Assembly: GCA_029856525.1 (NCBI GenBank)
Contig: JAHQXC010000015.1
Span: forward strand, 1-21,248
Reading direction: 5' to 3'
Origin: Candidatus Odinarchaeia archaeon
Lineage (GTDB): Archaea > Asgardarchaeota > Odinarchaeia > Odinarchaeales > Odinarchaeaceae
Length of the DNA: 21,248 nucleotides
The translations under genes were made by a program, and so were the position numbers. This document shows, in pieces, positions 103 to 12,210 of this stretch. How positions within the stretch are numbered: position 1 is the first letter of the stretch; each line of letters starts with the position of its first letter. The notes beneath the pieces were generated by a model. The model worked only from the letters and a program-made list of their open reading frames with translations. It ran no database searches and was not told where the DNA came from.

Positions 103-140
103 CATGTTTAAATGGTAGCCCGGAGGAGATTCGAACTCCT

Positions 141-159
141 TTTTAGCCTTTGATAAGGG
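141..159 (-). other. tRNA intron 2, non-canonical position 48/49 (variable loop/T-stem junction), 19 nt, BHB motif
   Basis: Intron is C-CCTT-ATCA-AAGG-CTAA-AA. Central helix is UUAG/CUAA, the bulges are AC|C and AA|A, the inner hairpin is CCTT/AAGG, and the outer helix is CC(40-41)/GG(50-51). Removal leaves a 4-nt variable loop AGAC and an intact T-stem. Confidence 0.88.
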
Positions 160-169
160 GTCTAAGGGT

Positions 170-189
170 TTCCTTACACTTTAAGTGTT
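170..189 (-). other. tRNA intron 1, canonical position 37/38, 20 nt, BHB motif
   Basis: Intron is A-ACACT-TAA-AGTGT-AAGG-AA. Central 4-bp helix is CUUU(32-35)/AAGG, the bulges are GG|A and AA|A, the inner hairpin is ACACT/AGTGT, and the outer helix is the anticodon stem. Confidence 0.92.
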
Positions 190-399
190 CCAAAGCCCTT
201 TATGCTTGGCCACTACACCACCGGGCTGCAGATTACAGTTAACTTTTTTATTCTCTTATCGCTTCTTCTAGCTATTAGATACGAGTCTCTTTAAAAATTT
301 AAATGTTTTCAAAGCCTTGCATGGTTTAGCCGATTCTCGAGTCGTAGATGGTGAATTAACCTTTTTAGTATAGGTTTAAAATATTTTAAAAGTTTAAGT

Positions 400-627: not shown

Positions 628-1818
628 ATGCCCTGGGATATATGTGATTTCAGTAATATTAGACGAGTTGAAGAAGACTATATTAACTTGAATCCTATTC
701 AAAGAGCCGGTGTGTTAACTAGCGCGGCTAGAAAGGCGCTTATCTCATACGGGGATGGTTATTCAACCTGCGATTTATGTCTTAAACCTTTTAGGCTTGA
801 TAAGATTTCTAAACCTCCTATAGGTGAATTCTATCAGGAGTTAGCTGAATGGCTGAATATGGATGTTGTTCGTATTATGCCTGGAGCCCGCCGCGGTTTT
901 CAAGCTGTAGCTCTATCTCTTCTTAAACCAGGTGATGTTGTAGTAGGGTCTGTTCTATCTCACTACACTGTTTTTCTCGCGGTTGAAGAGGCTGGTGCTA
1001 GTTTAGCTGAGGTTAACGTTGATGAAAGCTATGTTATAAAACCGGAGTTTTTAGCCAGTAAAATCGAGGAGATCCGGCGTGTTAAAGGTAGAGATCAGCC
1101 TAAACTAGTTGTTTTAAGCCATGTAGACTACCTTTTCGGGAATGTTCACCCGATTGAAGAGCTTATTAAAATCGCAAAAGAATATGGGGTTCCGTTTCTC
1201 TATAACGGCGCTTACACGGTTGGTGTGATGCCTGTTGATGGTAGAAGGCTTGGAGCTGATTTCATCGTCGGTTCAGGGCATAAAAGCATGGCTTCACCGG
1301 CTCCTACAGGTGTTCTAGCTACGTCTAATGAATGGGCTTCTAAAATTTTTTCAACGGCGAGTATTAAAGGCGATGTTAGCGGTAGAAGCTTCGGGATTAA
1401 AGAAACTCATCTTCTAGGTTGCACTGTAATGGGTGCTCCTCTTCTAGCTATGATGGCAAGCTTCCCCTATGTGAAAGAGAGGGTTAAGAGATGGGATGAA
1501 GAGGTGAGGAAAGCTCAATTTTTCATCAACGAATTTGAGAAGATTGAAGGAAACCGTGTTCTCGGGCAGAGACCCCACCTTCACACGCTTATGAAACTCG
1601 ATACGACAAGGTCCTTTGATAGAATCGCTCAAGCCCATAAGAAGAAAGGATACTTCCTCTATCATGAACTTGAAGCTCGTAAAATAACCGGTATTTTTCC
1701 AGGAGCTACTAGGAATTTTAAGATTAACTTATACGGTTTAACATGGGATCAAGTCCGCTATGTAGCTGACGCGTTCAAGGAGATCGCTGTAAATTATAAT
1801 ATACCAGTGTCAGGGTAG
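628..1818 (+). CDS. pscS: O-phosphoseryl-tRNA:Cys-tRNA synthase (SepCysS)
   Basis: Motifs INLNPIQRAGVLT, YGDGYSTCDLC, LYNGAY, the PLP-lysine motif GSGHKS, and LLGCT. Confidence 0.95.
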   Translation: MPWDICDFSNIRRVEEDYINLNPIQRAGVLTSAARKALISYGDGYSTCDLCLKPFRLDKISKPPIGEFYQELAEWLNMDVVRIMPGARRGFQAVALSLLKPGDVVVGSVLSHYTVFLAVEEAGASLAEVNVDESYVIKPEFLASKIEEIRRVKGRDQPKLVVLSHVDYLFGNVHPIEELIKIAKEYGVPFLYNGAYTVGVMPVDGRRLGADFIVGSGHKSMASPAPTGVLATSNEWASKIFSTASIKGDVSGRSFGIKETHLLGCTVMGAPLLAMMASFPYVKERVKRWDEEVRKAQFFINEFEKIEGNRVLGQRPHLHTLMKLDTTRSFDRIAQAHKKKGYFLYHELEARKITGIFPGATRNFKINLYGLTWDQVRYVADAFKEIAVNYNIPVSG

Positions 1819-3652: not shown

Positions 3653-3705
3653 GTAGAGGTGATTAATAGCTAAATATGTTTAAATGAAATTTGAAGGGTG
3701 ACCTT

Positions 3706-5123
3706 ATGAAAGAATACCCTTATCTACCAAATGTACCTGATAAGATTAAGCGGATGATGTTAGATGAGATAGGCGTGAATTCGATAGAGCAGCTATACTC
3801 TGATATTCCAGCGGATATTCTTCTAAGAAGGAATCTGAATCTCCCTGAATCCAAGTCTGAGAGTGAAGTTTACCGTGAAACTGTTCGAATTCTAAGAAAA
3901 AACAGGGCTTTAGATTATTCTAAGATATTTGTAGGCGCAGGGGTTTGGCCTCATCTTATCCCCTCAATAGTCGGTGTTCTACTCAGCCGCGGGGAATTCC
4001 TGACCGCCTACACCCCATAGCTGTGTTTTAATAAACACGGCGGGGAGATCAAGCGGAAGCCTCTCAGGGAATTCTCCAAGCCTTCTACGAGTATCAGAGC
4101 ATGATGGCTGAGCTTTTAGAGATAGATGTTGTAAACGAGTCCATGTACGACTGGGCTTCAGCTTTAGGTGAAGCTGCTTTAATGTGTAATCGCCTTAATA
4201 AGAGGGGGAAGTTTCTAATACCTGAAATCATACACCCTGACCGTTACTCAACGCTTATATCCTATACTGATAGCGCTGGAATAGAAGTTGTTAAAGTTAA
4301 ATATGACCGGGATAGCGGTAAGCTTGATCTAGCCGATTTAAAATCGAAGATGAACGGTGATGTAACCGCTGTCTATGTTGAAAATCCAAGCTATCTCGGA
4401 GTCATAGAAGACCAGGTTGATGAAATTTCCAGTATTTGTAAAAGCAATGAATCACTGTTCGTGGTCGGCGTGGACCCTACCTCTCTTGGTATAATTAAAC
4501 CTCCTGGAGCTTATGGAGCTGATATTATTATAGGAGAAGGCCAGCCTTTCGGATCTCCTATCAACTATGGAGGTCCGCTGCTAGGGATCTTCGCGTGTAG
4601 AGACGACAAGAAAATGATCAGACAGCTACCAGGCCGCTTAATCGGTATGACTACTACAATAGAAGGCGGTGAGCGCGGTTATGTGATGACTTTAACCTCT
4701 AGAGAACAGCATATAAAAAGGGAGAAGGCTACATCTAATATATGCTCTAATGAAGGCTTGTTAACTGTTGCAGCTGCAATATACATGGCGGCTCTCGGTA
4801 AAAACGGGATTATTAAACTGAGCAAGAATATTTTCTATAATACACAGTATTTGATGAGAAGGCTTCAAGAAATTGAATCTATTACAAGCCCTGTTTTTAA
4901 CAGCGTTCACTTTAAAGAGTTTACAGTTAACATTGACAGGGTTAAATTATCTTGCTCTGAATTCCAGGGGAAATTGTTAGAGAAAGGGTTAATCTTCGGT
5001 AAATCCGTGGAGCGTGAGTATCCTGAGCTCGGTAAAACATTATTAGCCTGCACAACAGAGGTTCACTTAAAAGAGGATTTAGATTACCTGGCGAATAGTA
5101 TCCGCGAGGTGGTTGAAGCATGA
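3706..5123 (+). CDS. gcvPA: Glycine dehydrogenase (decarboxylating) subunit 1, intron-containing: join(3706..4018,4048..5123), 462 aa
   Basis: ATG at 3706 follows AAGGGTGA. Exon 1 ends ...[11 protein letters not shown] and exon 2 begins AT-CAA-GCG-GAA-GCC-TCT-CAG-GGA, so the join gives [27 protein letters not shown]. Downstream GcvPA motifs are intact (NESMYD, GEGQPFG, GGP.LG, LTSREQHIKREKATSNICSN). Spliced length is 1389 nt, or 463 codons. Confidence 0.93.
4019..4047 (+). other. Predicted 29-nt archaeal BHB intron within the gcvPA mRNA
   Basis: CCCC(4013-16), bulge AT|A(4017-19), 9-bp hairpin GCTGTGTTT-TAAT-AAACACGGC(4020-41), GGGG(4042-45), bulge AG|A(4046-48). Cleavage after the second nucleotide of each bulge reconstitutes TAT (Tyr) and the reading frame. 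Confidence 0.9.
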
Positions 5124-11142: not shown

Positions 11143-12210
11143 ATGATAGAGATAGACGGCAGTCTCGGTGAGGGTGGCGGCCAGATTCTGAGAACGAGTC
11201 TAGCGCTCTCAGCTCTTTTAAATAAACCTGTTAGAATATATAATATTCGAATGAACCGGCCTAACCCCGGGCTTAGACCGCAGCATATGGCTAGTGTGCG
11301 AGCGTTATCAGAGCTGACAGGAGCGGAGTTGAAAGGTTTAGAGGAAGGGTCCACTGAATTAATTTTTTCACCTAAAGGCGGAGGTGTTAAAAGAACTGTT
11401 ATCGATATCGGAACCGCTGGAAGCGTCTCTCTACTATTACAGGCTATAACCCCCTACTGTATTTTTACAGGCGACCGTGTTAAATTAAGGATTATCGGAG
11501 GCACCGACGTTAAATGGAGTCCGCCGATAGACTATGTTAAGCATGTTACGATTCCGATATTTAAAAAAATGAATATTAGAATAGATTTGAATCTTGTGAA
11601 GAGAGGATTCTACCCGAAAGGCGGCGGTGTTGTAGACGTGTTATTTCATCCATGCGATGAATTAACTCCGATTCAGATAGGAGAACAGTCGCGGATTCTT
11701 CAAATTAAAGGTGTTTCATACGCTGCTAATCTACCATCCCATGTTATTAAGAGGCAAGCTGAATCCGCTGAAGAAGTTTTAAAAAAATCTGGTTTAATCC
11801 CAGGTGACGTTATCATAGATATACTTCAAGAGGAACCTGTTAACGCTTTATCCCCGGGTTCAGGCATTGTCTTATACGCTATTATGGATAGAGGCGGGCT
11901 TATAGGCGCTGACTCTCTTGGTGAGAAGGGGGTTCCAGCTGAGAAAGTGGGTGAGGCGGCGGCTGACAGTCTTCTTCTTCAATTGAAGACAAAGGCGGGT
12001 GTCGACTACCATATGTGTGACATGCTTATTCCTTATCTAGCTTTAGCCTCAGGCTTATCGAAAATATACACGTCGAATATGACGCTTCACGCTTTAACAA
12101 ACATTATGATTGTTGAAAAATTCCTTAATGTTAAATTCAATGTAACAGGCGGGTTGAATAAACCATCTTATATCGAAGTGAAAGGGGGGATGTTGAATCA
12201 GCTACGTTGA
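11143..12210 (+). CDS. rtcA: RNA 3'-terminal phosphate cyclase
   Basis: Motifs IDGSLGEGGGQILRTSLALS, RPNPGLRPQH, GTAGS, GGTDV.WSPP, GFYPKGGG, and the His-adenylate motif VDYHMCD. Confidence 0.96.
   Translation: MIEIDGSLGEGGGQILRTSLALSALLNKPVRIYNIRMNRPNPGLRPQHMASVRALSELTGAELKGLEEGSTELIFSPKGGGVKRTVIDIGTAGSVSLLLQAITPYCIFTGDRVKLRIIGGTDVKWSPPIDYVKHVTIPIFKKMNIRIDLNLVKRGFYPKGGGVVDVLFHPCDELTPIQIGEQSRILQIKGVSYAANLPSHVIKRQAESAEEVLKKSGLIPGDVIIDILQEEPVNALSPGSGIVLYAIMDRGGLIGADSLGEKGVPAEKVGEAAADSLLLQLKTKAGVDYHMCDMLIPYLALASGLSKIYTSNMTLHALTNIMIVEKFLNVKFNVTGGLNKPSYIEVKGGMLNQLR

Follow-up and report, generated by a model that had tools for sequence, protein, structure and literature searches.

Two BHB introns flank a 10-nt exon in the tRNA-Gln(UUG) gene of Odinarchaeum, and their predicted splice motifs share two anticodon-stem nucleotides

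Archaeal pre-tRNAs with more than one intron are the closest described counterparts of the gene analysed here. For the Thermoproteales and Crenarchaeota, secondary accounts of the work of Sugahara et al. (2007, 2008) describe the features that link these precursors to our case, i.e. two to three BHB introns, relaxed motifs and an (alpha-beta)2 endonuclease, and likewise the idea that the folding of the RNA can set the order of splicing (PMC3728597, PMC4033280). In the Atabeyarchaeia and Freyarchaeia, introns are present in 92-95% of the tRNA genes; more than half of the genes have several introns, many of them at non-canonical sites, and tRNAscan-SE overlooks some of the genes (Valentin-Alvarado et al. 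2024, PMC11291895). A preprint of October 2026 extends this census to 90 Asgard genomes and lists insertions in the variable region (bioRxiv 10.64898/2026.10.13.758758). In the light of these Asgard reports, the statement of the original prediction that multi-intron tRNAs are known mainly from the Thermoproteales is outdated. Both papers deal with the phylum to which the organism studied here belongs and centre on other classes. A term search of the preprint gave no mention of Odinarchaeia, and in the accessible parts of PMC11291895 and of the preprint we found no description of the Odinarchaeum gene, of an intron at position 48/49 or of the shared nucleotides U42-U43 considered below.

The window, i.e. 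the whole stretch of DNA analysed here, comprises 21,248 nt and corresponds to positions 1 to 21,248 (forward strand) of contig JAHQXC010000015.1 of assembly GCA_029856525.1, a Candidatus Odinarchaeota MAG of 1.32 Mb with 38.5% G+C (genome G000 in the following). Its minus strand carries, from position 227 to 113, a tRNA-Gln(UUG) gene with two introns and an encoded CCA end:

190..227, minus strand: exon 1, tRNA positions 1-37 (A1 at 227), comprising the acceptor 5' strand, the D arm, the anticodon-stem 5' strand and the loop nucleotides C32 U33 U34 U35 G36 G37
170..189, minus strand: intron 1, 20 nt, at the canonical position 37/38, strict hBHBh' type, pre-tRNA positions 39-58
160..169, minus strand: exon 2 (middle exon), 10 nt, comprising A38, C39-U43 (anticodon-stem 3' strand) and the variable loop A44 G45 A46 C48
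141..159, minus strand: intron 2, 19 nt, between C48 and A49 at the junction of variable loop and T stem, pre-tRNA positions 69-87
116..140, minus strand: exon 3, comprising the T arm AGGAG/UUCGAAU/CUCCU, the acceptor 3' strand and the discriminator A73 at 116
113..115, minus strand: encoded CCA end, read directly and followed by T runs

The middle exon has the sequence ACCCUUAGAC. The T runs following CCA are a candidate archaeal terminator. As expected of a Gln(UUG) tRNA, the acceptor stem comprises 7 bp and U33 precedes the anticodon UUG at positions 34-36. Removal of both introns yields a product of 76 nt including CCA, which ARAGORN identifies as tRNA-Gln(ttg) with an intact cloverleaf. 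The 5' half shows 95% identity to an Asgard tRNA-Gln(UUG) that has no introns (L005), and the Rfam tRNA model RF00005 matches the unspliced gene (227..116) with 42.4 bits at a cut-off of 29, if run in sensitive mode with loosened filters.

We scanned the 115-nt precursor for BHB motifs, defined by a 4-bp central helix and a 3-nt bulge on either strand, with the cut following the second base of the bulge. The scan yielded just two strong motifs, one per intron. BHB1 has a complete central helix (4/4; C32-U35 paired with AAGG), the bulges GGA and AAA, the 5-bp anticodon stem as outer helix and an inner helix of 4-5 bp, and thus conforms to the strict hBHBh' type at 37/38. The central helix of BHB2 is complete as well (4/4; U42 U43 A44 G45 with CUAA), flanked by the bulges ACC and AAA (the last A being A49), an inner helix of 4 bp (CCUU/AAGG) and an outer helix of 2 bp (C41-G50 and C40-G51); intron 2 thereby qualifies as a BHB intron at a non-canonical site, where relaxed HBh' forms count. 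Other BHB candidates in the precursor lacked an outer or inner helix, or formed only 3/4 of the central helix, and were dropped. An exhaustive solver, which recursively removes BHB candidates and accepts solutions with a full cloverleaf only, returned a single solution, identical to the parse given in the original prediction. When the intron letters were shuffled with the boundaries held fixed, a 4/4 central helix together with an inner helix of at least 4 bp was estimated to arise by chance with a probability of 3e-5 for intron 2 and 7e-4 for intron 1. The alternative parse suggested by the Rfam alignment, a single long intron plus a long variable arm, was rejected. Gene identity, strand, lengths and positions of the introns and the middle exon, all as originally proposed, were borne out by the BHB scan, the unique solver solution and ARAGORN, and the scan reproduced the nucleotides that had been assigned to each motif. 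We conclude that the tRNA-Gln(UUG) gene with two BHB introns is real.

The exon junctions were also evaluated independently of the BHB motif. We searched metagenome contigs for the 25 nt of exon 3 (T arm and acceptor 3' strand) and found them in more than 120 contigs, from which 66 distinct tRNA-Gln genes were taken. Each of the 66 has a variable loop of 4 nt (NRAC) that borders directly on the T stem AGGAG, and an insert at 48/49 was absent from 66/66 of these metagenomic genes with the same T arm. Two intron-less genes of 73 nt, L111 and L122, are identical to the predicted spliced product at 67/73 and 66/73 positions, respectively. In both, exon 2 is contiguous with exons 1 and 3, and the last 45 nt, which cross both junctions, are identical to the predicted product. 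These genes support both junctions without recourse to the motif, and both introns are predicted to be absent from the mature RNA. A search for sequencing runs that contain this genome gave a single DNA run, a sediment metagenome that may be the source of the assembly, and no RNA run. In a sister family of the same order, the UUG gene (L006-L008) has a D-loop intron only, with UGAC directly abutting AGGAG; the CUG gene (L040, L041) has a D-loop and a 37/38 intron, and its position 48/49 is empty. Within our sample, the 48/49 intron thus appears to be confined to the genus Odinarchaeum and its two glutamine tRNAs.

The UUG gene recurs in three further genomes of the genus, each representing a separate species, with 93-97% identity across the locus, and both intron positions are kept in all four species and both isoacceptors (UUG and CUG). 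The UUG genes of the four species do not differ in their middle and 3' exons; in exon 1, G003 shows two substitutions, one giving a G27-U43 pair. Differences in intron 1 are mostly located in the loop, apart from one G-to-A change that turns a G-U pair with U33 into A-U. Intron 2 ranges from 17 to 21 nt, again with variation mainly in the loop, and G001 loses one pair of the inner helix. In the CUG gene, the introns at 37/38 and 48/49 comprise 30-33 and 26-27 nt, respectively, in the four species. The inner helix of its intron 2 (GUGGCU/AGCCAC, or GUGGU/ACCAC in G003) is unrelated to CCUU/AAGG of the UUG gene and shows a compensatory C-G to U-A change in one species, and its central helix differs from that of the UUG gene by a double change (A44-U to G44-C). 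The CUG gene otherwise shares the geometry of the UUG gene, with an outer helix of 3 bp. Since the UUG gene was matched only once in the closed genome of the genus (G002), it must be functional. The CUG gene of G003 (C28; L039:50-212) contains a third insert of ~26 nt in the T loop besides those at 37/38 and 48/49, which looks like a species-level intron gain.

Default ARAGORN (no introns) found no tRNA in the window, default cmscan at gathering threshold gave no Rfam match in the window, and a whole-genome RF00005 search missed the UUG and the CUG gene alike. With ARAGORN -i, intron 1 is shifted by 2 nt, resulting in the call 'tRNA-Stop(tta)', and intron 2 is kept as a long variable arm, much as the original prediction had warned that tRNA finders may misplace the boundaries or report a false long variable arm. 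The reading of the anticodon as UUA ('tta') was rejected as a product of the intron 1 call being 2 nt off. ARAGORN -i reported a second 'tRNA-Stop(tta)' at G000:C5:342-477, for which the splice solver gave a tRNA-Lys(UUU) with two introns; this is an annotation artefact of the same type. The sole CAA-reading glutamine tRNA found for this Asgard genus is hence overlooked by ARAGORN in default mode and by the default filters of Rfam. Reports on Odinarchaeia genomes could wrongly list an absent tRNA-Gln or a stop-codon suppressor.

Variable-loop introns are found in further tRNA genes of the genome. Our genome-wide intron solver is crude: class II tRNAs and several long genes (e.g. C26 Pro, C71 Trp and C124) were parsed ambiguously or not at all, and the following context was taken only from class I parses with 4/4 central helices. 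Introns of 28-30 nt at position 46/47, with a 4/4 central helix and no outer helix, were identified in Lys-UUU, Thr-UGU, Lys-CUU, Thr-CGU and Thr-GGU:

G000, C5:342-474, C13:4065-4187, C48:9331-9459, C84:2465-2566 and C97:2066-2167: tRNA genes with an intron at 46/47

Ala-GGC has a variable-loop intron at 45/46. The central helices of the 46/47 and 45/46 introns use positions 41-44, three of these being anticodon-stem bases, and the outer helix of the parsed variable-loop introns comprises 0 bp at 46/47 and 0-1 bp elsewhere. The combination of a 37/38 with a variable-loop intron, separated by a middle exon of 9-10 nt, occurs in Lys-UUU, Thr-UGU and both Gln genes, and in Glu-CUC a distance of 11 nt separates an intron of the anticodon loop (parsed at 34/35) from one of the variable loop. 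Overlap with the anticodon stem is a general property of variable-loop introns in this genome; the Gln genes stand apart only in the precise site, which directly borders the T stem. The hot spot at 46/47 may reflect the spread of introns between tRNA genes.

The original prediction went on to claim that the two folds cannot coexist and that splicing must be sequential with refolding in between. The full-length folds of BHB1 and BHB2 do collide, but their cores (central plus inner helix) overlap at U42-U43 only. Outside BHB2, these two residues form the uppermost pairs of the anticodon stem, with A28 and A27; formation of the BHB2 outer helix (C40-C41/G50-G51) breaks the T stem as well. Evaluated as explicit structures at 37 C, with nearest-neighbour energies that ignore tertiary contacts, modifications, protein binding and growth temperature and are only indicative, the cloverleaf with BHB1 has -30.3 kcal/mol, and a structure with both BHB cores, a 3-bp G-C anticodon stem and an intact 4-bp T stem has -27.4 kcal/mol, i.e. 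it lies ~3 kcal/mol above the best BHB1 conformer. The corresponding values are -24.1 kcal/mol for the BHB2 core alone and -19.4 kcal/mol for the full BHB2 fold as originally drawn. Ensemble costs were computed with the acceptor stem enforced. In the full precursor, the BHB1 core costs 3.9 kcal/mol at 37 C, and the BHB2 core 4.75 kcal/mol at 37 C and 4.1 at 70 C; addition of the outer helix raises the cost of BHB2 at 37 C to 6.65 kcal/mol. Both cores together cost 7.4 kcal/mol at 37 C, which is less than the sum of 8.65 (3.9 + 4.75). After removal of intron 1 the BHB2 core costs 4.78 kcal/mol at 37 C and 3.3 at 70 C, and after removal of intron 2 the BHB1 core costs 4.5 kcal/mol at 37 C. The unconstrained MFE structure was not a cloverleaf at any temperature tried and was not used for or against any order; as the nearest-neighbour model does not recover the cloverleaf as MFE, the energy argument is weak both ways.

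In the conformer with both cores, the outer helix of BHB1 is reduced to 3 bp and that of BHB2 is absent. The latter is probably dispensable, since most other parsed variable-loop introns of this genome are devoid of an outer helix. Both motifs are predicted to form in the unspliced precursor, so that neither depends on prior removal of the other intron, as would be the case in a nested or order-dependent arrangement. The original claim of incompatible folds thus holds for the full-length versions, but not for the cores, which share just U42-U43 and whose joint cost is below the sum; the demand for sequential splicing with refolding was overstated, as both cores fit into one predicted structure and no order is clearly favoured in the model. 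The calculated energies lend no support to strict exclusivity or a fixed order, and the proposed refolding would amount to a partner swap of two base pairs.

As to the splicing machinery, the genome has two EndA (PF01974) genes, encoding 188 and 187 aa. The best PDB match of the first protein is the catalytic subunit of A. pernix EndA (3P1Z_B, E 6e-44), with an end-to-end alignment that includes the region of the Crenarchaea-specific loop. This loop has been linked to relaxed substrate recognition and the cutting of non-canonical introns (PMC3241643, PMC12397907). In the second protein the region of the catalytic His motif is missing by eye; it shows weaker matches to other endonuclease units, the best being euryarchaeal-type, and is probably a structural subunit. 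Judged from these sequences, EndA appears to be a broad-specificity enzyme of the (alpha-beta)2 type, encoded by two genes. A. pernix EndA is an (alpha-beta)2 enzyme (3P1Z, 3AJV; Hirata et al. 2011, PMC3241643), and the putative catalytic subunit of Odinarchaeum aligns with it through the loop. The A. pernix enzyme is crenarchaeal; the putative second subunit in Odinarchaeum is nearest to euryarchaeal-type units. An RtcB homologue is present; its only match, at G000:C95:1006-1164 (minus strand), covers profile positions 1-50 of 426 and lies in a 438-aa open frame. The ligase gene may be unusual, i.e. diverged, split or interrupted. RtcA (RNA 3'-terminal phosphate cyclase), an RNA-end-healing enzyme often associated with RtcB ligation, is encoded in the window at 11143-12210 (plus strand; Pfam RTC, 3.5e-78, plus RTC_insert).

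Further genes of the window deserve a short remark. The ORF adjoining the tRNA gene (628-1818, plus strand) matches the Aminotran_5 and SepSecS profiles with E about 1e-21 each and may encode either a tRNA-dependent enzyme resembling SepCysS/SepSecS or a conventional class V aminotransferase. The gene for subunit 1 of the glycine-cleavage P-protein looks split (3691-4020 and 4101-5123, plus strand): its 340-aa ORF matches Pfam GDC-P only from profile position 118 on, and a 109-aa ORF is located just upstream. The window also contains a PheRS gene, with 90% identity to a Candidatus Odinarchaeota MAG.

We consider it quite likely that the locus specifies a functional tRNA-Gln(UUG) with two protein-spliced introns, whose sites are compatible or interconverting and which are probably removed in either order. 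According to our proposal, a primary transcript of ~112 nt plus CCA would be cut by EndA at the two BHB motifs, and the three exons would then be joined by RtcB. Intron 1 would present a textbook motif that has the anticodon stem as its base. Intron 2 directly adjoins the T stem and would be recognized via a central helix formed by U42-G45 and the 3' part of the intron; its exposure would require merely a local swap, in which U42 and U43 leave A28 and A27 for two intron A residues, and the three G-C pairs of the anticodon stem as well as the T stem could remain closed. Both cut sites might thus be present in one molecule, or interconvert by fraying of two A-U pairs, and the introns would probably be removed in either order, in separate encounters with the enzyme. 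The normal cloverleaf would form once the second ligation is done. That splicing does take place, with an enzyme of this specificity and in no obligate order, is what we infer from the data at hand.

A different route would be one in which mutually exclusive BHB folds impose a fixed splicing sequence, with global refolding between the cuts. This idea, which we regard as rather unlikely, draws on the double demand for U42-U43, which pair in the 5-bp anticodon stem (the BHB1 outer helix) and also in the BHB2 central helix, on the ability of C40-C41 to pair with G50-G51, and on the retention of this geometry in the CUG gene, there with a 3-bp outer helix. There are also precedents: multi-BHB precursors of C. 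merolae are processed in order, with the 37/38 motif last, and order dependence has been described for some archaea (PMC3728597). However, the cores overlap by two A-U pairs only, the joint cost stays below the sum, and removal of intron 1 hardly changes the cost of BHB2 (4.75 kcal/mol before vs 4.78 after, at 37 C). The outer helix that would extend the conflict into the T stem makes BHB2 costlier, is absent in the 46/47 introns and does not exceed 1 bp in the other parsed variable-loop introns. Moreover, the single-intron genes for Thr-CGU, Thr-GGU and Ala-GGC show the same clash with the anticodon stem in the absence of a second intron; therefore, the clash belongs to variable-loop introns and not to the intron pair. 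In a variant of the fixed-order idea, the U42-U43 swap, retained by both glutamine isoacceptors in the four Odinarchaeum species sampled, would act as a conformational switch that enforces such an order (e.g. variable-loop intron first, 37/38 intron last, as in C. merolae) and would represent a folding checkpoint in tRNA-Gln maturation, which we likewise hold to be doubtful.

Very improbable, in our opinion, is that the 19-nt segment is retained as a long variable arm of a class-II-like or suppressor-like tRNA. The segment does contain a 4-bp hairpin, and it is assigned to the variable region by ARAGORN -i as well as by the alignment to the Rfam model, but it is bounded by a perfect BHB at exactly the positions that restore a 4-nt variable loop (chance 3e-5), is absent from the 66/66 related tRNA-Gln genes and from the sister family, and has a counterpart of unrelated sequence, with the same site and the same motif, in the CUG paralog. 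At least five other class I tRNAs of the genome could be cleanly parsed with BHB-flanked variable-loop inserts, and the 'tta' anticodon behind the suppressor-like reading stems from the intron call shifted by 2 nt. Hardly conceivable is a pseudogene in decay, with inserts that are not spliced out any more: its unusual layout and the fact that tRNA finders miss it in default mode are all that speaks for it. Against it, no second gene for Gln(UUG) was matched in the closed genome of the genus, the middle and 3' exons are invariant across four species, with drift seen in the intron loops, and the spliced product has an intact cloverleaf.

The reading that we prefer, two compatible or interconverting BHB sites in one precursor, can be compared with two described systems. 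In nested crenarchaeal pre-tRNAs, according to secondary descriptions, the last BHB forms after removal of the other introns, whereas in Odinarchaeum both BHBs are predicted in the primary transcript, with two nucleotides in common. Independent BHBs in one precursor are known from C. merolae, where the order of removal follows stability and position of the motifs (Soma et al. 2013, PMC3728597). This is a eukaryotic nuclear system with experimentally detected intermediates; in the Odinarchaeum gene, the predicted stabilities of the two motifs are close. Asgard tRNAs with several introns and a splicing order that depends on folding are already known, and the Odinarchaeum gene opens no new principle. 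It does provide a clean and conserved case of two close BHB introns around a 10-nt micro-exon in the archaeal group nearest to the eukaryotes, and a small substrate for probing how much flanking helix an Asgard splicing endonuclease requires.
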